A DNA stretch of 64,000 nucleotides, from positions 62,241 to 126,240 of the IMG/VR virus record IMGVR_UViG_3300035698_020241. One strand, written 5' to 3'. Shown here piece by piece: positions 4,289 to 63,998 of this stretch. The position numbers and the translations under genes are program-made. Under the pieces are notes generated by a model. That model had not been told where the DNA came from. It was given only the letters and a program-made list of their open reading frames with translations, and searched no databases. The first letter of the stretch is position 1. Every line of letters begins with the position of its first letter. Source of the stretch: a virus.

Positions 4289-4310
4289 TCCTCTATCCTT
4301 CTATTTAAAA

Positions 4311-4710
4311 GTGGAGGACGGCGGGAATCGAACCCGCGTCTTGAATAAAATCATACATAATTCATACGCCTATTTCCGTCAACGTACTTTGAAGAAAAGG
4401 ACGGATACCGTTCTACAAAGTTGTGATATTGTTTGTTTAAGTCAGTCGGTCAATATCCAAGCCAAACTTTCCGATCCTACTAATTTATGCCTCACTAAGA
4501 TGTAGGATGCCCTTTAGTGAAACATGCAACTATATAGCTGCAAATGCGGGAGTTGGAACAAGTGACTTGAAGAAGTCGCTTATCTTAGTTACCGCGTTTT
4601 TTATAAATGTTTTAGCATTTATCGTTTTGTAGTCATTTTAAGGTAGCCTACTACATTCTACCAGACGCAATTACATACTCATACTACCCAATCGAAACCT
4701 TTTCGCCCCC
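4311..4710 (-). ncRNA. ssrA: tmRNA
   Basis: 5' GGGGGCGAAAAGGTTTCGA; 3' GACGCGGGTTCGATTCCCGC...CTCCAC; G3:U70 pair; internal tag frame after ATAAAT encoding AKTFIKNAVTKISDFFKSLVPTPAFAAI* (4530-4616). Confidence 0.93.
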
Positions 4711-5462: not shown

Positions 5463-5636
5463 TTAACATTCATTTTTATCTCCTTCAACATCGAAAGTTC
5501 CTATTTCTATAGGATAATATCTTGAACAATTTTTGTTTTTTTCATCTTTAACACAAGTACGACAATTTCCACTTCCATCATTTAAATCAACATCATGTTT
5601 AGGTCTTATAAACTGATATAAACAAATAGTTTCCAT
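5463..5636 (-). CDS. Small Cys-rich protein, paralog of 15948-16112
   Basis: Hand translation METICLYQFIRP...NDGSGNCRTCVKDEKNKNCS. Confidence 0.7.
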   Translation of the reverse strand: METICLYQFIRPKHDVDLNDGSGNCRTCVKDEKNKNCSRYYPIEIGTFDVEGDKNEC

Positions 5637-13992: not shown

Positions 13993-14327
13993 TATACTCC
14001 TTTATACCAAATTATAAATCTTTTATCATTATTTGGTAAAAACATTTCACTTACATTAATGATGTTTTCAACAGGTATACATTCCTTTTCTAACCACTCA
14101 TTCATAACATTCATTATATCTGTATTTTTAATAATTACCTGTCCAAAGGTAACTACCTTAAATGTTTTTCTTTTCAATTTCTTACCGGCTTTATAGAAGT
14201 CAATTTCTGATATAACTTCTCTATTGATCTTTGCTCTTTCCTCATTGAGACATTCTACATATTCAATATTAACCCTCATTATTATCTCCTTAATTTGGGG
14301 TTTTAAACTCATAATTATATTTTTCAA
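13992..14327 (-). CDS. Hypothetical protein
   Basis: ORF downstream of the promoter at 14339-14367. Confidence 0.55.
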   Translation of the reverse strand: MKNIIMSLKPQIKEIIMRVNIEYVECLNEERAKINREVISEIDFYKAGKKLKRKTFKVVTFGQVIIKNTDIMNVMNEWLEKECIPVENIINVSEMFLPNNDKRFIIWYKGV

Positions 14328-14338
14328 TCACTAAAATC

Positions 14339-14367
14339 ATTATATCAAAAATTGCACGCGATGTAAA
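14339..14367 (-). promoter_or_regulatory. Sigma70-type early promoter
   Basis: TTTACA-N17-TATAAT. Confidence 0.75.
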
Positions 14368-14542
14368 TTAAAAAATGCGTGATTTGTTTTCAAAACAAAA
14401 CAAGGGGTTAGATGATTCTAACCCCTTATGTATCTGATAAAATAATTTATACATCTCCAACATGTATGCTGGTTTTTAAATCCTGTAAAATAACTTCCAC
14501 ATTCTTTACAATGATGTACAAAGTCAATTCGTTTTTTCATTA

Positions 14543-15280
14543 TTATCTCCTCCCATTATACATACCATCACCTTTAACTGCGATAATATGTCTCACATCA
14601 ATTCTCCTCTGTTTTCCGATATCCTTGTGGAAATCACTTTCCCAGATAAAAACAGATTTTGGAGTGGTTCTAATAAGGTCTCTCCACTGCTTACCACCCT
14701 TGTAATTTATCTGTACCCTGTAATTATAATGATTTCTACTATAATCAAAATTCTTTTTAAGTCCAAGAGACACGAATTTTGCATTCGCTATCTGTTGTTT
14801 CATATTTTTTACAACTTTTTTATTTTCAGTGATTTTATCCTGAACTTCAAGTCCGATTTTAAGGTCGTCACTATCAGCCATTCCTACAATACCAAAAGTA
14901 TGTCTATAACACTGGATTTTCCAGATTCCTTGACTTTTGAAGTCAAAAACACTGTATTCTGTGGCTCCTGATAATCTACCGCGAGTTATAGGACGAACTT
15001 TTATAATAACTCCACGAATATTACCTTTTCTTGATGCCCATGTAACAATGGCACCAACCACAGCGTTATAAACTTTTTCATTAAAACTGCCGGCAGCCCT
15101 TTTAAATTTATCTTCATCAAAAGTTTTACCGTCAACAGAAAGACCCCATCTACGGGCTAAACTTAAAAGCATATCAGGATCATTTTTCCATTGATTAACT
15201 TTTTTCATCATATTTGTTGCATTAGGAACATTGGAGACATCGGGATGAACTTGTTTTGCTATATCTGTATATAAACTCAT
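14543..15280 (-). CDS. Protein with an N-terminal truncated J-domain-like HPD motif
   Basis: MSLYTDIAKQVHPDV...MKKVNQW resembles J-domain helices II-III. Confidence 0.6.
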   Translation of the reverse strand: MSLYTDIAKQVHPDVSNVPNATNMMKKVNQWKNDPDMLLSLARRWGLSVDGKTFDEDKFKRAAGSFNEKVYNAVVGAIVTWASRKGNIRGVIIKVRPITRGRLSGATEYSVFDFKSQGIWKIQCYRHTFGIVGMADSDDLKIGLEVQDKITENKKVVKNMKQQIANAKFVSLGLKKNFDYSRNHYNYRVQINYKGGKQWRDLIRTTPKSVFIWESDFHKDIGKQRRIDVRHIIAVKGDGMYNGRR

Positions 15281-15366
15281 CTTCAAAATCTCCTTTCGTT
15301 TTATTTTCAATCATTAAATACATTATACCAACTCAAGGGTATATCTATTGTATAGGTACACCCTTT

Positions 15367-15630
15367 TTATTTTGGACAGATATGTTCTCTTCGTAGTCTT
15401 GAACTTGCATTCATTTCTGTAATTAACTCACCACAATCTTTACATTTGTATATAGTGTTACAACCACTATTCATTTCATGTGTGAATTTATTACCATTCC
15501 ATAAATCAGAATCAACAGACCTTACTAATTCTAATTTTAACATCTTCATTTTTCTATTAACATTAATTTTACCGTGTAACAATATCCATGTGCCTAAACA
15601 CGCCATACCAGTTATTACAGTTATATACAT
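15367..15630 (-). CDS. Hypothetical protein (membrane anchor, CxxC)
   Basis: ORF filling the space between repeats 1 and 2. Confidence 0.6.
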   Translation of the reverse strand: MYITVITGMACLGTWILLHGKINVNRKMKMLKLELVRSVDSDLWNGNKFTHEMNSGCNTIYKCKDCGELITEMNASSRLRREHICPK

Positions 15631-15697
15631 TTTTTAATCTCCTTTTCTACCAACTCAAGGGCGTCCTATTGTATAGGTACGCCCTTAGACTTTGAGA

Positions 15698-15880
15698 CTA
15701 CATACTAAGATCAATAACATTAAAGTTTTTACGAGTGAGTCTATTGGAAACCTTGATCAAGTTGGTGATAAAAGCTCTAACATTTTTGAAGCTTTTGAAT
15801 TCACGAATTTTCTTGGCTCCTGCCATGATGGGATTACCATCTTTTTCAATTACAAATATTTTTGTACTCATAATAATCAA
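15698..15880 (-). CDS. Small basic protein, paralog of 17034-17207
   Basis: FKSFKNVRAFITNLIKVSNRLT versus FKSLGKARNFVRNIIKVSNGLT. Confidence 0.7.
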   Translation of the reverse strand: MIIMSTKIFVIEKDGNPIMAGAKKIREFKSFKNVRAFITNLIKVSNRLTRKNFNVIDLSM

Positions 15881-15912
15881 TCTCCTTTCGTTTTATTTTT
15901 CAATCTATAATT

Positions 15913-15941
15913 AGTATAACAAATTTCAAAACCGTTGTAAA
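15913..15941 (-). promoter_or_regulatory. Sigma70-type early promoter
   Basis: TTTACA-N17-TATACT. Confidence 0.75.
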
Positions 15942-15947
15942 TTACTT

Positions 15948-16112
15948 TTATTCTTTAATCTCAACATCAACAGTGGAAATCTTTATAGGATAAAATTTTG
16001 AACATTTTTTGTTGTTTTCATCCTTAACACAAGTACAACAATTACCACTTCCGTCGTTCATTGAAACATCCGAACATGGTCTTATAAACTGGTGTAAACA
16101 AATAGTTTCCAT
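15948..16112 (-). CDS. Small Cys-rich protein, paralog of 5463-5636
   Basis: METICLHQFIRP...NDGSGNCCTCVKDENNKKCS. Confidence 0.7.
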   Translation of the reverse strand: METICLHQFIRPCSDVSMNDGSGNCCTCVKDENNKKCSKFYPIKISTVDVEIKE

Positions 16113-16335
16113 TTCAATCTCCTTCACATTTTGAACATTTAGGTTTACCGGCTTGATAAATGCCACAAAATTCACAGGTATATTCTATGTTTCCTGGATG
16201 ATCTTTTACCCATTTACATGAACAATTAAATCCATAAATAACATTATCACAAGTACATTGTGTTTCCATTTCAATCTCCTTTTCTACCAACTCTAGGACG
16301 TCCTATTGAATAGGTACGCCCTGTGAGTCTAAAAT

Positions 16336-16560
16336 CTAACGTCTGCCACCTTTTTTTTGTTTCTGCTGACCGACACGTCTTTTGATTTTTACTGGAACTT
16401 TTGTTCTTTCGATTATTTCCCATGCAAAATGACAACCAGTTCCTATTTTTGGATTATCAACAAACCTGGTCTGTATGGCTGGATCTGGATAAACGGTACA
16501 TTTTTCAGTTTCCCAGTCAACTTTTTCACATTTTAAACAAGCGTAGGTTAAATTAGTCAT
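16336..16560 (-). CDS. Small Cys-containing basic protein
   Basis: ORF between repeats 3 and 4, with RBS. Confidence 0.65.
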   Translation of the reverse strand: MTNLTYACLKCEKVDWETEKCTVYPDPAIQTRFVDNPKIGTGCHFAWEIIERTKVPVKIKRRVGQQKQKKGGRR

Positions 16561-16640
16561 TTTATTATCTCCTTTATAGTTTAATTTTCTACCAACTCAA
16601 GGACGTACTATTATATAGGTACACCCTTTTGGGAGAGTTA

Positions 16641-16784
16641 TTAGTCATCTTTATGGTCTTTACCACATACGGTACAAGTATACTTGTATCTTCCTTTTTC
16701 ACCGCCTACAGTGTGTAAACGAATTTTTTTACCGTATCTTTTATCTTGAAAATCACTTTTACATGTGCATCTGAATTTCTTCAT
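16641..16784 (-). CDS. Small Zn-finger-like protein (47 aa)
   Basis: Hand translation MKKFRCTC...HT...YTCTVCG; AGGAG RBS. Confidence 0.6.
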   Translation of the reverse strand: MKKFRCTCKSDFQDKRYGKKIRLHTVGGEKGRYKYTCTVCGKDHKDD

Positions 16785-16823
16785 TTTATTGTCTCCTTTA
16801 TTGTTTAATTTGTTTATGTATCA

Positions 16824-16852
16824 ATAATAACAAATTCTAACATTCTTGTAAA
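16824..16852 (-). promoter_or_regulatory. Sigma70-type early promoter
   Basis: TTTACA-N17-TATTAT. Confidence 0.65.
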
Positions 16853-17033
16853 TCAAAAAAGATAGTGCCTTATATAGCGCTCTCGGATTTACATCCAAGA
16901 AGTTATTCTGGCATTGATAAAGGTTATGAATAACTCAACTAATCCCTTATCTATCATACAGGTGACTATCTTTTCTACCAACTCAAGGGCGTCCTATTGT
17001 ATAGGGACGCCCTGTATTTGTTGGAGATAAATC

Positions 17034-17207
17034 CTACAGACGGATCATTTCAAAATCTTTAATAGTGAGACCATTGGACACTTTGATTATGTTACGGACA
17101 AAATTTCTTGCTTTACCAAGGCTCTTGAAAACACGACATTTTGTACCCTCAGAATTAGCCATTAACAGACGTCCTTTTTTTGTTACTGCACACTTTTGAG
17201 CCTTCAT
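17034..17207 (-). CDS. Small basic protein (57 aa), paralog of 15698-15880
   Basis: Hand translation MKAQKCAVTKKGRLLMANSEG...; AGGAG RBS. Confidence 0.7.
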   Translation of the reverse strand: MKAQKCAVTKKGRLLMANSEGTKCRVFKSLGKARNFVRNIIKVSNGLTIKDFEMIRL

Positions 17208-17253
17208 ATTCTTATCTCCTTTATTTTTTGTTTGTTTGTTTGTTTATGTGTAC

Positions 17254-17282
17254 ATACTATCAAATCCGAACATTCTTGTAAA
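17254..17282 (-). promoter_or_regulatory. Sigma70-type early promoter
   Basis: TTTACA-N17-TAGTAT; spacer nearly identical to neighbouring promoters. Confidence 0.65.
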
Positions 17283-17528
17283 TCTTTTATTTAAAATCTT
17301 TTTAAAGACATACGGATCCAACTTTGATCCATAAACCTTTAGAAATACTTTAAACTTTGCAGTTTTAACTATTTGTTTTTACTCTGTTTTGTCTTGATTG
17401 ACACGCTAGCGTTTTAAGTGTTATTGTTAAGACCCTGATAATATTGTTAATTCACCTCGGCCGATGATGTTTCACAATACATGTAAGTACAACTTACATT
17501 GTGTCTGTTACCTCTTTGATCTGTATTC

Positions 17529-17557
17529 ATTATATCAAATCCGAAAGCCGTTGTAAA
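17529..17557 (-). promoter_or_regulatory. First leftward sigma70-type promoter
   Basis: TTTACA-N17-TATAAT. Confidence 0.8.
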
Positions 17558-18169
17558 TGAAAAATAATAACTAACGAATTCAACACTTTGTAACTTACTG
17601 ATTTTTCAAACTCAATCTCGATCACTGGAAAGATTATAACATACTGAAAACATTTTGTAAAGAGAAAAATAACCTGTAATGGTTTCAGTGGTTTACTCGA
17701 AGGGTGTGAATCTCCAGCGCAGAACCGATATGGTGTGTGGCTCAAAAACCGCCCCTGGAGCCACGGAGATTGCGGAGGATCGACGGAAAAATCTTCTGAA
17801 GGTCTCAGTAAGGGGTAAGGCAGCCTGCGCAAAATCCCAAAAGTAAAGATAATTTTATATAATGGCCATGACCCTTCAAGGTGTTGATATATCACTATCG
17901 AGATATGATGGTGTTGATACCACATGGTGTTGGGATATAAACACTCATAAGTCCGTGATATGATGATGCTCTGGTGCGGATTACCGTATAGGACCAACGG
18001 AGAGTGCGAGGACTGGGCGGAAATCTGATCTGAAGGTACTGACATCAACCTTAGATACCAAGATCAGTCTGCGCAAAATCCGTCAGACTGATAATGATTT
18101 CAGATAGTTACCTGAGCTGTTAGATACCAGATCGTCCAAGCCCTTGAAATCATTGAGAATAATTCTTTG

Positions 18170-18438
18170 TTTACATACCAGTGGCCGTTTGTTATAATGT
18201 ATACATTGATCGGGTAACACACTGAGTGAATTCAAAGAGTTACAAAGTTATAAAGTGTTGAAATTGTTCAGGAAATTTTTTGATTTACATTTGAGTTGAG
18301 ATTTGATATAATGGAAACAGATTGAGAAAGTAATACAACAAAAGTTGTAACAACAAAAGTTGTACAGTAAAAGTTGTTACACAATAAAAGTTGTAATTAA
18401 GATTTTTGATTTACAAGTAAAATGAAGTTTGTTATAAT
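18170..18438 (+). promoter_or_regulatory. Three tandem rightward sigma70-type promoters (18170, 18284, 18410)
   Basis: Each is TTTACA-N17-TATAAT with TTTG(A/T) before the -10 box. Confidence 0.8.
18340..18394 (+). repeat. Four AAAAGTTGT direct repeats
   Basis: Copies at 18340, 18355, 18369 and 18386. Confidence 0.8.
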
Positions 18439-19049
18439 GAGTATAAGAATAGAATTGACTATCACCAATTTCATTAATGGACTGCAGACCATAAATGGAA
18501 TTCAACAATAACTTTTAAAACGCTAGCGTGTCAATCACGATAAAACAAAAAAACAAATAATTGAAAAAATTATAAAGATTATAAAATGTTTAATTCAGGC
18601 TTAACGATAGAGTTAATATGTTGATAATGTACCTGTTTTTAGTATACCATTGTAAATTCAGACATAATTATCACCTTTGTACCTATCATACACCACGAGT
18701 AGTCACTGATAGCTCTACATTGCGGATTTTGTGATCTTGAAAAGTAACTGAGGAGAAAACAATCAAACAGTCATTTTATAATTTTTATAATTTTTTGAGT
18801 TAAAAGTAAATGGTTTCAATATGTTGATAATTTAATGTGGGTTATCTTGACGGAATAACTGGTTCGCAACCAAACATGGAAATGTCGAAAGTATAACGAG
18901 GTATTGCGCATCGTATCAGCTTTTGTCCAAAGTATCAGTTACTTTGGCGAGTTCGGTAAGGCAATAAATATCTTTTGATTATATCAATTCCTATTATCAA
19001 CATTTTAAAGTTATTTACTTAACAGTTTGAAATGTTTATGAATTATTTT

Positions 19050-19158
19050 ATACTGAGGCGAAAATGGTACACGTCCTGTTGAGAAGCAGAGTTGGTAAGG
19101 TTCGATTCCTTACAATTAATAAACTGGAGTCAAACGTGGGTTCGACCCCCACCAGTAT
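19050..19158 (+). ncRNA. tRNA-Leu-like element with two T-arms
   Basis: ATACTG/CAGTAT acceptor; Leu-like D-loop GGCGAAAATGGTACACG; GTAAGG-TTCGATT-CCTTAC and GTGGG-TTCGACC-CCCAC hairpins; no CCA. Confidence 0.55.
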
Positions 19159-19242
19159 ATTTTTTTTGTTTACAAACATTTCGTTTTTGTGTATAATGAA
19201 GTTGAGTTTGAATTTAACATTTAAAAAATAAAGGAAATTACG

Positions 19243-19500
19243 ATGGGCTTTGACAAAACAAAAGATAAAGAATTAATGTCGAAAGAGTTAGAAAGTGGTC
19301 TTCGCATTTCGGTTTTTTCTTATAACGGCGGCGAAGCCAAACTCCAGATCGGCCCCAGAGTTTTTGATAAAAGGGACGGATCCAAGGGTTACGGAAAAGC
19401 TGGCAGAATGTCTCTTAAAGAGGCTGTTGCTTTGGCTGGTCTTATGCCTCGTATATCAGAGGTTATGAACGGTCTTCCGGCTAATTCTCTTCCTGAATAA
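19243..19500 (+). CDS. PC4/YdbC-like ssDNA-binding-fold protein (putative)
   Basis: LRISVFSYNGGEAKLQI...GKAGRMSLKE pattern; own promoter at 19169-19197. Confidence 0.55.
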   Translation: MGFDKTKDKELMSKELESGLRISVFSYNGGEAKLQIGPRVFDKRDGSKGYGKAGRMSLKEAVALAGLMPRISEVMNGLPANSLPE

Positions 19501-25355: not shown

Positions 25356-25429
25356 CGCCTAAAGGTAAAAAAATTAATAGGGCGTTGGTCATGAGATCAA
25401 CGCCCTTTTTTATTGGAGAATATGAGTTT

Positions 25430-35813: not shown

Positions 35814-37256
35814 ATGAGTAAAGCGAGTAGAAAAAAGAGAAAGAAAAACAGGAAAAATAAACAACGATTTAATAGAAAGGGTCAGAATATGGTAGTACAT
35901 GCAGATAGTAATATATTTAATAGTAATGTAGCCGATGAATGGGAAGTTGAATTGGACATGGTAAAAGAATGTGATAAAGCTCCGAAAAAATTAGTAGTGT
36001 GGATATTACCTGAAGCAAAAGTAAAGGTTGACGCTTTGATGGAAAAATATCCAAATATTGAGTGGCTTGCATATTTACTTGGAGAGAATCAAACTATTAC
36101 AGATATATGGATTCCTGGACAGGAAATAACAGCAACAAGCGTTGATAATATTGTATGTCCTGAATTCAACGATCTTAATACAATAGGTGTTATACATTCA
36201 CATCATGGCATGGGAAACGGGTTCTCAGGTACAGATCATGAATGGATAAACCAAAACCATAATATATCTCTTTGTATAGCAAAAAACGGTATAGCAGGAC
36301 AAGTAAGATGGAGTACACCTTGTGGATCAATGAAGATAATTGAATGTACAGTACAACTTAAACTTGATGTTAAATTTGACAAGGGTGAGTTCTTAAAAAT
36401 GTCTGAACATAACATTAAAAGAAAAGTAGTACAAGTTACTCCTAATGCATATAATGGTTATGGTTATAATTTTAATCATCCTGGTCAGCAAAGTAAAGGT
36501 ACTGATAAGGACCCATTCCCTGGATCATGTTTATCAAAACATGCAGGAGAAACAAATGAAAAAACCTTAATTGATGAGTTGTCCGAACTTGATGGTAATA
36601 CAGTTGAAGAATGTGGAGATTGTATATATTTCCTTGAAACCTCTGATCAATGTCAAAGAAGTTGGCAAAATGTTACATTACATGGAACTATTTGTGATGA
36701 GTTTGATCCTGGTGATGTAGTGCCTACATGTGGATTATGTAAAGCATATAATGCTGATACACCAACACCTGATACAGGTAAATGTACAGACCCCGATGTA
36801 AGTTTTGATGATGTTACATTTGACGAAGCTGTTTGTATAAATTTTAAGGAAGTTGAGAAGGAAGTTGAGAAGGAAGTTGAGAAGGAAGTTGAGAAGGAAG
36901 TTGAGAAGGAAGTTGATATTGAAAAATGTTGTTTTAATTGTCACCATTTCGTACCAACAAATCATAATGTGGGAAAATGTGGTAATGAGAATACACATTT
37001 TGGAATCGTTGGTTACGGACAAAAATGTGAACAACATAAGGAAAAAGCTGTTGAGCCTGTAAAGAGAGAACAAAATATAGTTGTAAACAAAGGACAGATT
37101 GTTTTTTGTAAAAACTGTAATTCGTTTGAACCAACATCTTATGTTGAAGGAAAATGTTCAAATAATAAGATACTTTCAGATACAGTGTCAAATGTTTCCA
37201 ACTGTAGAGAATTTGTATTACGAGATCCTGTAAAGACAAAGGATATTACAAAATAA
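35814..37256 (+). CDS. JAB/JAMM metalloprotease (DUB-like) with Cys-rich C-terminal repeats
   Basis: E(WLAYL)...IHSHHGMGNGFSGTD = E-HxH-x7-S-xx-D; about five CxxC...C...C modules. Confidence 0.88.
   Translation: MSKASRKKRKKNRKNKQRFNRKGQNMVVHADSNIFNSNVADEWEVELDMVKECDKAPKKLVVWILPEAKVKVDALMEKYPNIEWLAYLLGENQTITDIWIPGQEITATSVDNIVCPEFNDLNTIGVIHSHHGMGNGFSGTDHEWINQNHNISLCIAKNGIAGQVRWSTPCGSMKIIECTVQLKLDVKFDKGEFLKMSEHNIKRKVVQVTPNAYNGYGYNFNHPGQQSKGTDKDPFPGSCLSKHAGETNEKTLIDELSELDGNTVEECGDCIYFLETSDQCQRSWQNVTLHGTICDEFDPGDVVPTCGLCKAYNADTPTPDTGKCTDPDVSFDDVTFDEAVCINFKEVEKEVEKEVEKEVEKEVEKEVDIEKCCFNCHHFVPTNHNVGKCGNENTHFGIVGYGQKCEQHKEKAVEPVKREQNIVVNKGQIVFCKNCNSFEPTSYVEGKCSNNKILSDTVSNVSNCREFVLRDPVKTKDITK
36846..36917 (+). 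repeat. 12-bp tandem repeat x6 (KEVE)
   Basis: AAGGAAGTTGAG x5 plus AAGGAAGTTGAT. Confidence 0.95.
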
Positions 37257-37674: not shown

Positions 37675-38319
37675 TTATATTGCTCTAATGTATTTGTATA
37701 ATTTTTTAATGAATTTTTTATATGTTGGATGGTTTGTTTCAAAAGAATCTTGATAATCTTTCATTATGTTTGATTCTCCACGATCTAATAACTCTATAGC
37801 AGCACCTTGAGCAAAAGCGTCCAGTTCCATAGGATCCGAAAGGTAAATGTCCTTATCAGCATTAGGATCAAATTCATCTGGACCAAAAGATTTTCCTCTG
37901 GAAACTATATTTTGAGTAACATGTATTAATTCATGTGCCAATATAGTTGTTAATTCTTTAAAGAATTCATTATTTTGTATTTTAAAAAAATTTTCTCTTT
38001 TACCAGGTTTAGTAAATCGTCTGAAATAAGAACTTGATCCTTGTTTAACTTTTATAACTATTGGAAGATGAGGATTATCAAATGTAAATGCTGATGTTAT
38101 ATGTCTTCCTAATGATAACGCTCCTCTTTTATCAAATGAAAAATATAAATTATCATTTTTGAAAGCCGCATTGAGTGTCTTTATTAATGCTGTATCGGAA
38201 ATCTGCCAACCATTTTTTTCAAACACTCTACCTATCTCACCAAGGCGTTTATTCACCATTCTTATTGCGTTTTTTATAGTTGGTTTTGTTATCTCGTTTA
38301 TATATTGTTTAAATCTCAT
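37675..38319 (-). CDS. Zincin metallopeptidase-like head-tagged protein 1
   Basis: MRFKQYINE start; LAHELIH...PMELDAFA. Confidence 0.75.
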   Translation of the reverse strand: MRFKQYINEITKPTIKNAIRMVNKRLGEIGRVFEKNGWQISDTALIKTLNAAFKNDNLYFSFDKRGALSLGRHITSAFTFDNPHLPIVIKVKQGSSSYFRRFTKPGKRENFFKIQNNEFFKELTTILAHELIHVTQNIVSRGKSFGPDEFDPNADKDIYLSDPMELDAFAQGAAIELLDRGESNIMKDYQDSFETNHPTYKKFIKKLYKYIRAI

Positions 38320-38963
38320 TTCAATTTCTCCACATACTTTATTACTTTCTTTATAAATCTATTCTTTGCTTTCATATCTTTAACTAAGGTGAACGCATTT
38401 AAAAGATTATCAAATGTTTTTGATACTCCAAATCTTTTCATTTCTACGGCTGCCATTTGTGCAAATGCTTCCATTTCTACTGGATCTTTAAGATAGTTTA
38501 TAAATTCATACTTAGATGATTCTGGTGACATTTCAAATGATTTACCTTTAGATGCTTTAAATTGTCTTTTGTGTAATAATTCATGTGATATGGCATCCAA
38601 AAGATTTCTGAAAAACTCATTTTTATCTATATCATAAAATATTTGTTGTCTTTTAGGCTTAGCAAATTGTTTAAATGCTTTACCTACACCAGGAGATACT
38701 ATAATCATTATTAATAAACCTTCAGCGGCTATATTACCACCTTCAATATATTTACTATGCCTATCTTTACCTTTACCCAAAATGAACAGTATACCATCTT
38801 TCTTGAACATACTGGTCAACATAGATACTATAGCATTATCATTCATTATCCAATTATTTTTATTAAGTATACGAAACATTTCAGCCATATGACTTTCTAT
38901 CATCTTCTTAGTTTTACTAACAGTTGGTTTTGTTATCTCATTTATATATTGTTTAAACCTCAT
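38316..38963 (-). CDS. Zincin metallopeptidase-like head-tagged protein 2
   Basis: MRFKQYINE start; ISHELLH...PVEMEAFA. Confidence 0.75.
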   Translation of the reverse strand: MRFKQYINEITKPTVSKTKKMIESHMAEMFRILNKNNWIMNDNAIVSMLTSMFKKDGILFILGKGKDRHSKYIEGGNIAAEGLLIMIIVSPGVGKAFKQFAKPKRQQIFYDIDKNEFFRNLLDAISHELLHKRQFKASKGKSFEMSPESSKYEFINYLKDPVEMEAFAQMAAVEMKRFGVSKTFDNLLNAFTLVKDMKAKNRFIKKVIKYVEKLK

Positions 38964-38965
38964 TA

Positions 38966-39634
38966 TTAATCCTTTTTAGCATATTTGAAAAAATTAGATA
39001 TTCTTTTCTTAACAACTCTATCATGGCTTGAGTATTGGTAAAGTTTTTTTATGAAGACCTTTCTCATTTTTTGATTGCCTTTCAATATTTTAAGGACTTC
39101 CCTTAATCTATTATACTTACCATTCTTTAAATCTAGATATATAGTATGAGCCCAAGCCTCTGTTTCGTTTGGATCGGAGAAATATCTAATATTTAATAAC
39201 CAGTCTGGAGCATCTGGGTCGTCTTCTGTTCCTTTCTCTTTTTTATCATCATCATCAGGAAATTTTTCCCATTGTTTTCTATGTATCAACTCATGAGAGA
39301 TTATATCAGTCAAATCTTTAATAAAAACTCTTATACTAAACTTCTTATCCAACATCTTTGATGTTAATACTATTTCAATTTCATCTTGAAGTGATTGTCC
39401 AAAGCATACATATGTTGAATACGGCACAACGCATTCCTTATCTTTTCCGGTATGTGTGAATCCTATTTTATCATTTTTAAATATATTATACAAAGCTTTT
39501 GTTACTTGATCCATATCCTTTGCTTGTCTTATAGCTTTGGACATTTTACCTTTTTTCTGGCTCAACATATTCTTTACATGTTTAAGTGGTGATCCTGTTA
39601 TTTCAGTTATAACATATGTTTCAAGTCTACTCAT
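38966..39634 (-). CDS. Zincin metallopeptidase-like protein 3
   Basis: ISHELIH...PNETEAWA. Confidence 0.75.
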   Translation of the reverse strand: MSRLETYVITEITGSPLKHVKNMLSQKKGKMSKAIRQAKDMDQVTKALYNIFKNDKIGFTHTGKDKECVVPYSTYVCFGQSLQDEIEIVLTSKMLDKKFSIRVFIKDLTDIISHELIHRKQWEKFPDDDDKKEKGTEDDPDAPDWLLNIRYFSDPNETEAWAHTIYLDLKNGKYNRLREVLKILKGNQKMRKVFIKKLYQYSSHDRVVKKRISNFFKYAKKD

Positions 39635-43434: not shown

Positions 43435-44139
43435 ATGAGACTTAAACAATATATAAATGAAGGTATAGAAGATAAAGGAATACTAAAGGCTGTATTTATA
43501 GTAGGCCATCCTGGTAGTGGCAAGAGTTATGTGTTATCAAAAATTAAATCAGGACAAATAGAACCAAGAGTTGTAAATACGGATAAGGTTTTTCCTTTAT
43601 ACTCTAAAGATGAATGGGATAAATGGGTAGATATAAAAACCAAAGTAAAAACAATTAATAAAAATCAGTTAGCAAATTATATAAATTCTATGTTACCATT
43701 GGCTGTTGATGGTACAGGCACAGAACCAAGTGTTATATTAAGAAGAGTTGGTATACTTGAATCATTTGGATATGATGTTGGAATGGTATTTATTAACACT
43801 TCTCTTGAAACCGCACTTGAAAGGGCTGGAAAAAGAGATAGACCTGTAGATCCAGACTTTATCAAAAGAGTATATAAAAGAATACAAGATGCAAAACAAT
43901 TCTATCGTAGTAAATTTAGTGATTGGCAGGAGATACAAAATGATAAAGGAGAACTTACAGAAAAGGTAATTATTGATGCTTTTAAACATATGACATCATT
44001 CTATAATTCTCCAATGGTAAATCCTGTTGGTAAAGAGATTATACAAAAGATGAAAGAAAATAAGTGGAAATATTTAAGTCCTAATATAAAGGATATAAAA
44101 GAAATACAGAATATGATGAGTGCATGGTATAGAATGTAA
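43435..44139 (+). CDS. Head-tagged P-loop kinase (zeta-toxin/AAA_33-like)
   Basis: MRLKQYINE start; GHPGSGKS; VDGTG; GMVFINTSLETALER. Confidence 0.8.
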   Translation: MRLKQYINEGIEDKGILKAVFIVGHPGSGKSYVLSKIKSGQIEPRVVNTDKVFPLYSKDEWDKWVDIKTKVKTINKNQLANYINSMLPLAVDGTGTEPSVILRRVGILESFGYDVGMVFINTSLETALERAGKRDRPVDPDFIKRVYKRIQDAKQFYRSKFSDWQEIQNDKGELTEKVIIDAFKHMTSFYNSPMVNPVGKEIIQKMKENKWKYLSPNIKDIKEIQNMMSAWYRM

Positions 44140-44855: not shown

Positions 44856-45517
44856 TGAAATTCAAAAAGTTTTTAAATGAGGCCACACTTGAAAAAATAG
44901 AAGAAGCTGCAAAAATGATTGCAAGAGATTGTAAGCCTTATCTTAAAGAGAATACTATTGTAAAAACTTCCGTAGGATATATTTTTAAAAGTAACGGAAC
45001 ACTTTATAGAGGATGTAAGGGTAAAGTTGATGTATTTAAAAAGATAACACCTCGTAGTAATAGAATACCTGTGGATATTACAGTAGATATACATAAAAGA
45101 CTTGATGTGTTATTTAAAGAAAAGTTTGGATGGAAAGTTAGAAGTGAAGGTGTATTTACAACTGGAAGTAAATTTGTCGCTGGTTGTTATGGTGGTGATG
45201 ATGGTGGATATATTGTATTTCCTATAGGAAAATACAAATTTGTATGGAGTCCTAAAGTATATGATATGTGGGACACATTAAGATATACATATAATCTTAC
45301 TGCTGGTGAGTCAGGAGGTAAAAAGCAAAGTCTTTATACAATAGGACTCACAACTCATGAAAAAATTTTAAAGGATATTGTAAATTCATTTATAGATAAA
45401 AATTTAGAAAAAGGAATAGAATCAGGAAATGAAATAACATTAAAAGTAGGATCATATTATTTAGTTGAACATATTAATATGGGTGCAATTTTACAGGAAT
45501 TAGGTAAATTGATATGA
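44855..45517 (+). CDS. Head-tagged protein, paralog of 42584-43432
   Basis: MKFKKFLNE start; LYRG...FGWKVRSEGVF...FPIGKYKFVWSP. Confidence 0.7.
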   Translation: MKFKKFLNEATLEKIEEAAKMIARDCKPYLKENTIVKTSVGYIFKSNGTLYRGCKGKVDVFKKITPRSNRIPVDITVDIHKRLDVLFKEKFGWKVRSEGVFTTGSKFVAGCYGGDDGGYIVFPIGKYKFVWSPKVYDMWDTLRYTYNLTAGESGGKKQSLYTIGLTTHEKILKDIVNSFIDKNLEKGIESGNEITLKVGSYYLVEHINMGAILQELGKLI

Positions 45518-54836: not shown

Positions 54837-55199
54837 TTGTGGAGGAGAATATATATGATAAGTGATAATGTTATGAAACTTAAAGAGTTTGGAGATTCTA
54901 TATATTATAGAGTTGGTTGTGATTGTATGGATAAAAGATGTGAGTTAACCATGGAACTAGAACTTGATGAAGATGATAAAATGATATATTTAAATCTATA
55001 TAAGGACTTAGTATGGGATGAATACTATAATAATGATAATAGATTTACAAGATTTTGGAGACGAATAAAATGTACATTAAGAATGTTATTTACAGGTCGT
55101 ATTGAACTTGAAAGTTGTCTTGTATTAAAAAATAATAATATGATGGCCCTCCGTGATGCAATTGATGAAGGTATATCAATAATGGAGGAAAAGAAATAG
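54837..55199 (+). CDS. Hypothetical protein
   Basis: ORF; YRVGCDC motif. Confidence 0.6.
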   Translation: MWRRIYMISDNVMKLKEFGDSIYYRVGCDCMDKRCELTMELELDEDDKMIYLNLYKDLVWDEYYNNDNRFTRFWRRIKCTLRMLFTGRIELESCLVLKNNNMMALRDAIDEGISIMEEKK

Positions 55200-56482
55200 T
55201 GAAAAAAAAGGTAAATCCTGAAAGGGATGCTAGATTAAAAAAGGAGTATGAGGAGTGGTTAGACACAGAAACATTTGATCCAGAAGGTATGGGAACAGAC
55301 GAGTTAGAAAGAGACCTAACTAAAGAACTAACATTTCTCCATAAAATGAGTGCAGAGGAATACACTCTGTATCGTAAGTGGCAGGAGATACAATTAAAAT
55401 ACCCACCAAAAGTTTCAAAGAAGAAAAATCCATTTTTTAATGTAGGACAAAAGAGTTCTGGTTATCCAAAACTTGATGAAATAAAAAATAACCTTTGGAT
55501 GCCAGAGTCACCAGAGGATTATCTTAAACTTGAACCAGTTGTTCTATGGACAATGGTTGGTACAAAAAAGGAAGTACAACAGAAAACAAAAACTTGGTCA
55601 ATGTTGAGAACATTTACATCTACAATGTTGAACAATTCAAATATAGGTAGAAATCTTAGATTTATAATACATGATAATGTTACTGGTAAATATCTTGGTG
55701 TGATATGTGCATCATCTGATTTTATGGACTTAACACCCCGTGATAAGTACATTGGTTGGACAAGAGAAGTAAAGACCACTAAAAAGATGATAAATCATAC
55801 ATCTATTGGATCATCAATAGTTCCAACACAACCACTAGGTTACAACTTTGTAGGTGGTAAATTATTAGCATTACTCACATTATCAAGGACTATTGAAAAT
55901 GCATGGGATAGTAGATATAAAGATAAATTAGTGGCAATGACCACAACATCTTTATATGGATCATTTTCTCAGTATAACGGATTAAAGTTCTGGAATAAAA
56001 GAGGTCATTCAGCCGGTAGTATTAAATTTGAACCATCAAAAAAGATTGTAATGAGAATGAGAGAATGGTTAAAAAATAATCATACATTACGATATTGGGA
56101 ATGGTATCATGCCCAAAACGATCAAAATATGCCACTCAAAAGAGATCATAAACAAAGGTCTCTATCATTTATATACAGACAATTGGATATTCCAAAAGAA
56201 TTATACCAGGCATCACATACAAGAGGTATTTACTTTTGTCCATTGTTTAATAATTCTTGTGATTTCTTACGGAAAGAGATAGAAGTAGGTAAACTTGTAA
56301 GACGATTCGATAATTCTACTCATACTCTTGTTGATCTGTGGAAAAATAGATATGCTAAAAAACGAGTTGAAAAACTTGTGAAAGATGAGAAATATAATAC
56401 AACTTCTTTATTCTATGATGATTTGATAGGAGTATCATGGGAAGAAGCTAAAGAAAAATATCTTAAAGATGTAGGGAGATAA
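55199..56482 (+). CDS. DUF4338/DruA-domain protein (copy 1)
   Basis: GRNLRF...YLGVI..SSDF....RD..IGW...IVPTQPLGYNFVGGKLLAL...TTTSLYG. Confidence 0.7.
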   Translation: MKKKVNPERDARLKKEYEEWLDTETFDPEGMGTDELERDLTKELTFLHKMSAEEYTLYRKWQEIQLKYPPKVSKKKNPFFNVGQKSSGYPKLDEIKNNLWMPESPEDYLKLEPVVLWTMVGTKKEVQQKTKTWSMLRTFTSTMLNNSNIGRNLRFIIHDNVTGKYLGVICASSDFMDLTPRDKYIGWTREVKTTKKMINHTSIGSSIVPTQPLGYNFVGGKLLALLTLSRTIENAWDSRYKDKLVAMTTTSLYGSFSQYNGLKFWNKRGHSAGSIKFEPSKKIVMRMREWLKNNHTLRYWEWYHAQNDQNMPLKRDHKQRSLSFIYRQLDIPKELYQASHTRGIYFCPLFNNSCDFLRKEIEVGKLVRRFDNSTHTLVDLWKNRYAKKRVEKLVKDEKYNTTSLFYDDLIGVSWEEAKEKYLKDVGR

Positions 56483-56483
56483 T

Positions 56484-57590
56484 ATGAAAGCATTAAAAAA
56501 GAAGATCATTGGAGACTTTGATTTTCTACAAAAAATGACCATACCGGAGTATACACTATATGCAAAATGGGTGGAAATAAACAAAAAGAAATACACATCA
56601 ACTGAACAATCTAGACTTTGGGAAATAAAGAATAGTTTATGGTATCCAAATAAACCAGAGGACTATTTGAAAGTTCAACCAAAAGTGATTGTGGTTAAAA
56701 CTAAAGAGGACTCACAGACTTGGACACTATTGAGAACATTCATTTCAACCATGAAATGGAATCAAAATGTTGGAAGAATTATAAGATATACTATTATGGA
56801 TAAAAAAACCATGACATATCTTGGTGTAATTTCTCTTGCATCTGATTTTATATCATTAGGCCCCAGGGACTCTGAAATAGGATGGGATTATACTAACAGA
56901 ATAAAACAAAAGATGTTAGCTTATACAGCAATGGGTTCTTCAATAGTTCCCACACAACCATTAGGTTACAACTTTGTAGGTGGTAAATTGATATCATTAA
57001 TTGTTAGTTCTGATAAAGTTGTTGATCCATGGAATGAAAAATATAAAGAGAACTTGGCTGGTATTACAACCACAAGTCTTTATGGTGGATTCTCACAATA
57101 TAATAGATTGAAACATTGGAAGAAATGTGGTACTACTACAGGTAAGATACCAATGGAACCATCAGAGGATAGCTACTTAGCAATCAGAGAGTGGGTGAAA
57201 AAAACACATCCAAAAGATTTTTTGAAACTCACACAAAATAAGAATGGTAAAATACTATCAAGACCAAAGGCAAAGATGTTATCATTTGCTTATACAAAAC
57301 TACAAATAAAACCGCCTGTGAATAACGCCCCAAGAGGTGTATATTATTGTAACCTCAATACGAAAGGAAACGAGTTTTTAAGGAAAGACAGTGATGATAT
57401 GGGTGAGAGTTTATTTGATAACAAACTCCAAACATTGGTTGATTTGTGGAAAACAAAGTATGCTAAAAAACGGGTTGAGAACTTGTTAAAGACTGATAGA
57501 TATAATACTGATTCTTTATTCTATGATACTTTGATAGGTAAGAGCTGGGAAGAAACACGGGAAATGTATCTAGCTAAAGTAAAGAGTTAA
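56484..57590 (+). CDS. DUF4338/DruA-domain protein (copy 2)
   Basis: Same motifs; SSIVPTQPLGYNFVGGKL identical to copy 1. Confidence 0.7.
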   Translation: MKALKKKIIGDFDFLQKMTIPEYTLYAKWVEINKKKYTSTEQSRLWEIKNSLWYPNKPEDYLKVQPKVIVVKTKEDSQTWTLLRTFISTMKWNQNVGRIIRYTIMDKKTMTYLGVISLASDFISLGPRDSEIGWDYTNRIKQKMLAYTAMGSSIVPTQPLGYNFVGGKLISLIVSSDKVVDPWNEKYKENLAGITTTSLYGGFSQYNRLKHWKKCGTTTGKIPMEPSEDSYLAIREWVKKTHPKDFLKLTQNKNGKILSRPKAKMLSFAYTKLQIKPPVNNAPRGVYYCNLNTKGNEFLRKDSDDMGESLFDNKLQTLVDLWKTKYAKKRVENLLKTDRYNTDSLFYDTLIGKSWEETREMYLAKVKS

Positions 57591-63235: not shown

Positions 63236-63445
63236 TTATTTTATCCTTTTAAGGTTTTTTATTCTTTTGAACATTGATAGTTTCATACTTAATTGTTTAC
63301 TATTCCGTGGCTGGTAAATTGTATACTCTACAAAGCCATCCTTAGTTATATTATTTACAGTATATGATGGATAAGTATCATTTACTTCGTAAGATTTTCC
63401 AACTTCAATTTTTACTTCATTTATATATTGTTTAAGTCTCATTAC
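63236..63445 (-). CDS. Head-tagged small protein
   Basis: MRLKQYINE start with an AGGAG RBS. Confidence 0.65.
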   Translation of the reverse strand, partial: VMRLKQYINEVKIEVGKSYEVNDTYPSYTVNNITKDGFVEYTIYQPRNSKQLSMKLSMFKRIKNLKRIK

Positions 63446-63452
63446 TATCTCC

Positions 63453-63998
63453 TTATTTTGGATGTCCAAAAATTCTTTCTTGTATAGTTATACTTGTACC
63501 GAATAATGTTCTTCTATACTCTCCATCTCCAACCCACTCAATATCACTACCAGTGGTACCTTTAATGATCTTTCTAACTTTTTCTTCATCTTTAACAATA
63601 GGAACACTTGAACTTACCAATATATCAGCAATTTTAAGACCAGCCTCTATAAACCAACCTTTCTTTTTTACAAGACTAATCAGTTTTTTCACTAATAATT
63701 TCTTTGCTAACGGTCCATTATCGGTTCCTAATGCTGTTATTTTATTACCAAACTTAGAATCCCAATAAGTTAAGAATGCATCAGGTAAATCATCTTTATC
63801 CACATCTATAAGCCATAAAGATTTATACTTCTTTTGAAAATGTTCTTTACTATTAGCATTGAAACCTAACTTCTTATATGTGTTTACATACATATCCTAC
63901 AATTTTTGTAATGTAGGTGTATCAATAGTAGATGTATCAAATGAAGACCATTTCTTCTTTGGCATGGTTATTTCATTTAAATATTTCTTAAATTTCAT
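63453..63998 (-). CDS. Head-tagged protein interrupted by an in-frame TAG at 63897-63899
   Basis: MKFKKYLNEITMPKKKWSSFDTSTIDTPTLQKL*DMYVNTY... continues in frame into the track ORF 63453-63893. Confidence 0.65.

Follow-up and report, generated by a model that had tools for sequence, protein, structure and literature searches.

A repeated hairpin unit as a possible promoter-less linker between small early genes of a large salt-lake phage

The 64-kb stretch of DNA analysed here (hereafter the window) is the right half of the IMG/VR virus record IMGVR_UViG_3300035698_020241, which is 126,240 bp long and is estimated by CheckV to represent 53% of a phage genome. Between small early genes the window contains five copies (HP1 to HP5) of a hairpin unit of 37-38 nt, all on the minus (coding) strand and all within positions 15326-17013. 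We favour, at about even credence, the view that this unit is a promoter-less 'half-PeSL' intercistronic linker, which would combine RNA punctuation with portable homology for cassette exchange. PeSL (promoter-early stem-loop) and PmSL cassettes serve gene regulation in T4-type phages (Arbiol et al. 2010, PMC2839356; Comeau et al. 2014, PMC4122927), and degraded 'half' PeSLs were reported in 2014 (PMC4122927). The linker is best read as lineage-specific and as part of the hyperplastic early region of a large phage. This view is built on the anatomy and single orientation of the unit, its fusion to ribosome-binding sites (RBS), its lack of a U tract, a conservation above the background and the coincidence of the unit with mosaic junctions.

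The original prediction, made from the letters of the window alone, had described five near-identical intergenic hairpin repeats, and these are confirmed. A search with the full 37-mer, in which as many as 3 mismatches were allowed, recovers 3 copies where 0.00 are expected, with zero matches in shuffled sequences, and a search with the 13-nt tail recovers all five. Neither this tail search nor a covariance model finds a further copy in the 126-kb contig. The spacing had been put at about 270-600 bp; measured from start to start it is 322, 637, 305 and 386 bp. Every copy begins 3-24 nt past a stop codon. The sequence that follows varies, as had also been described: an RBS in HP2, HP3 and HP4, a structured non-coding stretch and then a promoter in HP5, and a -10 box in HP1.

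Written 5' to 3' on the coding strand, the unit is A-GGGCGTACCTAT-ACA-ATAGGACGCCC-T-TGAGTTGGTA. A GC-rich hairpin of 12-13 bp is followed by a near-invariant tail TTGAGTTGGTA(GAAAAG), and most copies add a strong Shine-Dalgarno site at a fixed distance. The palindrome is imperfect and 26 nt long, and the hairpin contains one bulged base, in place of which HP1 has a mismatch. The tail core GAGTTGGTA is invariant among the copies. The Shine-Dalgarno site lies at the fixed distance in HP2 and HP3 and in the copies of two related phages, L151 and L006. HP2 and HP3 share 93% identity across 54 nt, through GAAAAGGAGATT up to the start codon with the Shine-Dalgarno site included, and HP2 differs from HP5 at one of 37 positions.

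The copies differ in strength. HP5 (16976-17013, 75.7 bits) consists of the hairpin AGGGCGTCCCTAT-ACA-ATAGGACGCCCT and the tail TGAGTTGGTA, and stands behind the 57-aa (amino acid) gene A and ahead of the structured non-coding segment. HP4 (16590-16627, 70.8 bits), between the 47-aa and 74-aa genes, is a weak copy with G.U pairs and a shifted bulge, and its Shine-Dalgarno site is displaced by 11 nt. HP3 (16285-16322) lies between the 74-aa gene and the pair of 51-aa and 54-aa genes, and its tail leads directly into GAAAAGGAGATTGAAATG. HP2 (15648-15685, 77.2 bits) lies between the 57-aa gene B and an 87-aa ORFan, and its tail leads into GAAAAGGAGATTAAAAAATG. HP1 (15326-15364) is the most degenerate copy; it has 38 nt, a 12-nt 3' arm, a compensatory change of C-G to U-A and a C x A mismatch, and its tail is joined to TATAAT, which yields an extended -10 TGGTATAAT (15330-15322) for the 245-aa gene. 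Hairpin stability is -16.3 kcal/mol in HP2 and HP5, -13.6 in HP3, -7.4 in HP1 and -6.6 in HP4.

Standard pairs occupy 95.8% of the pair cells. The stem variation comprises one compensatory change, that of C-G to U-A, four changes to G.U and three mismatched cells. Of the five stem transitions that affect one side only, four produce G.U on the sense strand, and folds of the sense strand are slightly more stable than antisense folds; both observations lend weak support to a role at the RNA level. A lower stem in which the upstream flank pairs with the tail was considered and rejected, its pairing being not above chance (P = 0.17) and RNAalifold finding the hairpin only. The likeness of the tail (AGUUGGUAGA) to a tRNA D-loop was also set aside, as it has neither a supporting stem nor a link to the tRNAs of the phage. 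No Rfam family matches the unit, at the gathering threshold or at E <= 1.

The unit does not end as an intrinsic terminator does. We required at least 5 T in 8 for a T tract; the tail TTGAGTTGGTA has 4 T in its first 8 and falls below this, and two terminators of the window reach it. One of these (14400-14429, minus strand), in which TTTGTTTTG comes after a stem of 13 bp, closes the leftward early operon and is the sole canonical terminator on that strand. The other (25379-25406, plus strand) consists of AGGGCGT...ACGCCCT followed by TTTTTATT (T7) and has the same lower stem as the hairpin units. The hairpin thus looks like one of the terminator hairpins of the phage itself, with the U tract exchanged for a fixed non-U sequence. 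A promoter scan found no promoter between HP4, HP3 or HP2 and the genes behind them, all of which have strong Shine-Dalgarno sites. Transcription of these genes must therefore pass the hairpins and, given the missing U tract, host RNA polymerase must largely read through. Its lower stem is that of a terminator, but with the T tract lacking, and with promoter-less genes behind it in an early operon of several promoters, the unit is not a plain terminator, and the earlier suggestion of a termination signal is in that plain form unlikely.

Two relatives have kept the unit: L151 (source ENA ERZ23498475), in which the product of the 57-aa gene A is 84% identical, and L006 (source SRR3715733), in which the 245-aa protein is 56% identical. 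L151 has the 57-aa gene A, an HP5-type upstream flank and then the unit, with a hairpin 2 nt shorter in the loop region and an identical tail. Past the unit come an HP2-type RBS and a different 51-aa Cys-rich gene, and homology to the window ends right behind GAAAAG. The L006 contig begins within the unit (GGGACGCCCTTGAGGTGGTAGAAAGGGAGG..ATG), ahead of an unrelated 69-aa gene. At the position of HP1, L006 and a third relative, L007 (77% identity), have a full promoter (TTTACT, 17-nt spacer, TATAAT). In the window the tail of HP1 meets the TATAAT at a TTGAG(T/C)TG microhomology, where the -35 box is lost and the extended -10 remains. Three homology breakpoints, in L151, in L006 and at the HP1 fusion, therefore coincide with the tail end of the unit.

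Gene order also differs among the relatives. In L006 a gene of the 47-aa family lies downstream of the 245-aa gene and in the window it lies upstream, and the 54-aa family is likewise found at another position in L007. The idea that the repeats shuffle small early genes is supported by these differences in order and content and by the three breakpoints; its integron-like form is not, as is discussed below.

The unit is better conserved than the genes around it. In L151 its identity is about 93%, while the adjacent gene reaches 80%, and in L006 the tail matches at 26 of 28 positions though the neighbouring protein is only 56% identical. Within the window the genes ahead of HP2 and HP5 are only 42% identical, and the two units differ at the single position given above.

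More distant relatives (L008 and L146-L150, 38-47% identity) are without the unit. Their equivalent positions hold a hairpin together with a sigma-70 promoter, the -35 box of which is overlapped by the 3' arm of the hairpin. In L148 (1199-1253) a terminator-like hairpin is followed directly by TTGTGTTGTTATAAT, a combination of hairpin and extended -10 like that of HP1 (21.4 bits with the covariance model).

A stem-loop that overlaps the -35 box of a sigma-70 promoter is the design of the PeSL (PMC2839356), so that the distant relatives carry this design in full. The units of the window share further properties with PeSLs: they are repeated intergenic motifs in a hyperplastic early region rich in small ORFans, the stem-loop motif runs into, and finishes with, the Shine-Dalgarno site and start codon of the gene behind it (HP2, HP3, L151 and L006), and relatives show indels or replacements at the motifs without a dedicated recombinase, here at three junctions on short contigs. 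They differ in that no sigma-70 promoter is part of the unit, the promoters being separate and beginning at 17282, 16852 and 15941. PeSLs conserve the promoter and the Shine-Dalgarno site while their stems vary, whereas the near-invariant parts of the present unit are the hairpin and a non-promoter tail of 11-17 nt. There are also just five copies in one 1.7-kb array, in a phage not assigned to the T4-type myoviruses. Mini-circles and terminator activity have been demonstrated for PeSLs (PMC2839356; PMC4122927).

A junction of the PeSL type is found at the end of the same operon. The terminator at 14429-14400 and a consensus promoter at 14367-14339 (minus strand) form a terminator-promoter composite (14318-14429), which is kept at 80-83% identity in L007 (1346-1455) and L006 (1755-1852), with 80% in L007 over 14427-14318. 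Different genes follow it in the relatives, and L007 has a gene of the 54-aa family instead of a 111-aa gene. The composite is a true PeSL-type junction.

In the proposed linker a terminator-type hairpin would be followed by the invariant spacer UUGAGUUGGUA(GAAAAG) in the place of the U tract, then by a strong Shine-Dalgarno site and the start codon. The hairpin would punctuate the polycistronic early RNA, forming a barrier at the 3' end of the cistron before it, a structure at the 5' end of the cistron behind it, or both, and weak attenuation or cleavage near it is possible. We infer that the transcribed hairpin stabilises or delimits the flanking cistrons or mildly attenuates transcription, and each small gene would thereby come with signals of its own for stability and translation. 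Such a role in processing or stabilisation is plausible. Repetitive extragenic palindromic (REP) elements, which stabilise upstream mRNA, attenuate transcription and promote rearrangements, are likewise imperfect palindromes of about 35-40 nt at intercistronic or 3' positions. They differ from the present unit in occurring in hundreds of copies throughout a genome, in both orientations and linked to RAYT proteins, whereas here five clustered copies have a single orientation, are fused to an RBS and have no Y1 transposase in the contig.

At the DNA level, 37-54 bp of near-identity in direct orientation would provide crossover points for general recombination, and genes could be swapped, dropped or acquired in register, with the joints falling between stop codon and RBS. 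The phage encodes a RecA/UvsX-like protein and UvsW, so ordinary homologous recombination suffices, as it does for PeSLs. We infer that general recombination uses the identity between copies; cassette exchange at the units by this route would seem, from the aligned junctions, to be partly shown. The idea of the PeSL would then reach past the coliphages and vibriophages of the T4 type to a large, uncultured phage of salt lakes, with short regulatory cassettes doubling as portable homology for in-register swaps of small host-takeover genes. It would do so in a new form, in which the conserved module is a promoter-less linker of hairpin and RBS and not a promoter. Such a linker (hairpin, fixed spacer and strong RBS) would be a compact natural intercistronic insulator, usable as a candidate genetic part.

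Several observations weigh against this interpretation. HP1 and HP4 form weak hairpins. The earlier claim that variants preserve pairing holds weakly: standard pairs prevail, but covariation is indistinguishable from shuffled alignments (161 of 500; six sequences). Gene order is constant in four contigs of the same phage from other samples. Circular cassettes had been proposed as a sign of shuffling; the contigs of four runs (Logan) repeat the arrangement of the window in fragments and have no deletion or circle joints, their depth of about 3-6x being too thin for rare rearrangements or circles. The breakpoints number three, with one side of each seen and the two unit-bearing relatives on short contigs, and in phage mosaics the breakpoints lie in intergenic DNA in any case. 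The tail is also conserved more strictly than the role of a generic stabiliser explains, which may reflect the binding of a specific factor or concerted evolution.

The first of these two explanations leads to a rival view, in which the unit is the RNA recognition site of a dedicated trans-acting factor (a phage or host endoribonuclease, or an RNA-binding antiterminator or attenuator) and is cut or regulated at each copy. We regard this as rather unlikely, and the same holds for its narrower form, in which a structure-specific endoribonuclease or RNA-binding regulator of the phage reads the lower stem, the bulge and the tail. Over seven copies, from phages whose proteins have diverged to 56% identity, the tail and lower stem are near-invariant and the variation lies in the loop and upper stem, and an irregularity of the helix (bulge or mismatch) is retained in every copy. 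A copy follows each promoter-proximal gene (57-aa gene A, the 47-aa gene and 57-aa gene B), and HP5 divides an open reading frame (ORF) from a structured 120-nt RNA. Gene conversion could also yield such conservation, however, and no candidate factor was found.

Sites for RNase III are one of the known systems nearest to the unit. Those between the early genes of phage T7 cut the early RNA into stable units. Such sites in early genes of Bacillus phage SP82 are attributed to Panganiban and Whiteley (1983), as cited in PMC4838370. Like the present units, the T7 and SP82 sites are conserved hairpins in polycistronic early transcripts of the host polymerase, placed in the gap that separates a stop codon from the following RBS. 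They have helices of at least about 20 bp with internal loops, whereas the stem of the present unit is of 12-13 bp and has no conserved extension, which is short of the roughly two helical turns of double-stranded RNA for RNase III. The contig contains no RNase III gene, and this and the lack of an Rfam match also speak against the view of a dedicated factor. If a factor does read the units, they would be a phage-specific RNA punctuation that divides the early RNA into gene-sized units and releases the 120-nt RNA after HP5, while setting the boundaries of exchangeable cassettes. If a specific factor reads the tail, this would be a new RNA-processing or attenuation system in phage early expression.

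It is improbable that recent local duplication spread the copies as ordinary intrinsic terminators or attenuators of partial efficiency, with the conservation of the tail reflecting their youth. Three copies do have GC-rich hairpins of -13 to -16 kcal/mol, the lower stem is that of a canonical terminator, the tail starts with UU, and similar GGGCGT..ACGCCC hairpins act as terminator-like elements in other phages. Against this stand the tail, with too few T to pass the scan, and the promoter-less genes downstream. Nor are the copies young, since the unit is kept in phages 56-84% identical in protein and between paralogous units that are old.

A promoter function is quite improbable. Here the unit would be read by a phage-modified or phage-encoded RNA polymerase (middle-mode or PmSL); an activator would use the palindrome as its site, and the -10 box would be TAGAAA, or TATAAT in HP1. 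A copy does lie ahead of every gene that lacks a sigma-70 promoter, and TAGAAA, preceded by TG, occupies the place of the functional TATAAT of HP1. The -7 position is A and not T, however, and a start about 7 nt past TAGAAA would fall at or behind the conserved Shine-Dalgarno site AAGGAGAT, giving a transcript without that site. A sigma-70 promoter within the unit was also rejected: HP2-HP5 have no pair of -35 and -10 boxes, no -35 box is conserved, and HP1 has only the extended -10.

That the copies are double-stranded DNA sites for a palindrome-binding protein (an operator, a partition site or an origin-associated site) near the strand switch is very improbable. The 26-bp imperfect palindrome and the position of the copies, within 2 kb of the divergent control region and of the skew turn at about 18000, would suit such a site. 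The strict sense orientation and the RBS fusion at a fixed distance would not, an asymmetric bulge and changes to G.U are meaningless in duplex DNA, and all copies lie between a stop codon and an RBS.

The attC sites of integrons are imperfect inverted repeats of 57-141 bp with R''/L''-L'/R' boxes (RYYYAAC ... GTTRRRY). That the units are attC-type or HUH-type sites for single-strand recombination by an unseen site-specific recombinase is scarcely credible, since, beyond the likeness of a one-orientation array of short promoter-less cassettes that each end in an imperfect palindrome with an extrahelical base, the unit has only 26+11 nt, its GTTGGTA misfits GTTRRRY, no inverse core is conserved, several cassettes have their own promoters, the junctions look like homologous or microhomology crossovers, and the 126 kb, an estimated 53% of the genome, contain no IntI or other tyrosine integrase (PF00589), serine resolvase or Y1 (HUH) transposase (PF01797), in line with the earlier remark that no recombinase is visible nearby.

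The genes of the array are small and Cys-rich or basic, as originally described, and gave no informative Pfam or PHROG matches. Read leftward, the order is promoter, 57-aa gene A, HP5, structured 120-nt segment, promoter, 47-aa gene, HP4, 74-aa gene, HP3, 51-aa and 54-aa genes, promoter, 57-aa gene B, HP2, 87-aa ORFan, HP1, 245-aa gene, 40-aa gene and terminator, all on the minus strand. The three promoters are of the sigma-70 type and, like that at 14367, follow the consensus of TTTACA, a 17-nt spacer with TG and a TATAAT-like box. The first (17282-17254) lies ahead of the 57-aa gene A; those at 16824-16852 (TTTACA, 17-nt spacer, TATTAT) and 15913-15941 (TTTACA, 17-nt spacer, TATACT) both have a TG.

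The promoter-proximal 57-aa gene A (17034-17207) belongs to a family kept in L151, L008 and L146, and the 57-aa gene B (15698-15871) is its paralog with 42% identity, which agrees with the paralogy noted earlier. The 47-aa Cys-rich gene (16641-16784) has homologs elsewhere in L006, L008 and L146. The family of the 74-aa gene (16336-16560), which is flanked by HP4 and HP3, is also found in an unrelated phage contig and a cellular contig, both without the hairpin unit. The 51-aa and 54-aa genes (16269-16114 and 16112-15948) are Cys-rich; the latter has a paralog with 74% amino acid identity at 5470-5636 (minus strand), directly downstream of a tRNA-Ser, and the gene behind the terminator-promoter composite of L007 is a third member of this family. 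The 87-aa ORFan (15367-15630), flanked by HP2 and HP1, has a C-terminal zinc-ribbon-like motif. The conserved 245-aa gene (14543-15280) has no assigned function and served as the anchor in the search for relatives.

The structured non-coding segment (16855-16975, minus strand) follows HP5. Its closing stem is GAAAAGAUAGU / ACUAUCUUUUUU, and the long closed fold (-33.1 kcal/mol, z -3.64) has a run of U at its end. The segment may represent a small RNA or a complex terminator, and L151 lacks it.

Wider searches for the unit and its surroundings gave little. Positions 14500-17600 had no match in 50,697 deposited phage genomes by blastn in near and distant modes. In IMG/VR an exact 22-mer of the unit was not found, a 17-mer of the tail had 17 matches, all by chance and inside coding DNA, and a pattern of the hairpin only had 16 matches to unrelated high-GC terminator-like hairpins. 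In a pattern scan of metagenomes the matches listed were chance ones in high-GC genes. Locus searches of IMG/VR with the 245-aa protein and with DUF932 gave no close relative, a profile search gave only the relatives of 38-47% identity that lack the unit, and an exact-match search for the cargo genes carried by L151 and L006 did not lead to longer contigs.

The DNA comes from salt-lake metagenomes, and eight salt-lake DNA runs, but no RNA run, were found to contain the stretch. The phage has a GC content of about 32% and encodes 23 tRNA genes and a tmRNA (Rfam, 108.6 bits) at 4309-4710 of the window (minus strand). The tRNA genes span 2184-31088 in two clusters, one on each side of the strand switch. 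The phage also encodes a UvsW-type helicase, a DnaB-like helicase, a family-B polymerase, RNA ligase 2, RtcB and a CCA-adding enzyme. At about 18000 the GC skew turns and the genes change direction, and the repeat array lies on the leftward (minus-strand) early arm, adjoining this switch.

The divergent control region at 17300-19250, in which the skew turns, has no credible ORF. The promoter scan found in it at least seven near-consensus outward-facing promoters (TTTACA, 17-nt spacer with TG, TATAAT), among them those at 17661 and 17557 on the minus strand and at 18170, 18284, 18410 and 19169 on the plus strand. The region also contains a pair of 90-nt inverted repeats (17339-17428 and 18504-18593) and AAAAGTTGT repeats at 18330-18396.

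Further repeats and shared sequences were observed elsewhere in the window. Two adjacent paralogous genes beside the DNA polymerase (55199-57590, plus strand) have internal repeats at 55782/56908 and 56321/57429, and the first of them matches the Druantia DruA domain (PF14236, 1.4e-18). The 12-nt tandem repeat AAGGAAGTTGAG, present about eight times at 36834-36929 (plus strand), encodes a KEVE repeat inside a 480-aa ORF (35814-37256) with a weak JAB-domain match. A near-identical gene start region ATGAGACTTAAACAATATATAAATGAA (MRLKQYINE...) is common to several genes, with sites at 38286-38351, 38930-38995 and 63409-63474 on the minus strand and at 43435 and 45514 on the plus strand; the gene at 45514 is CCA-adding or poly(A) polymerase-like.

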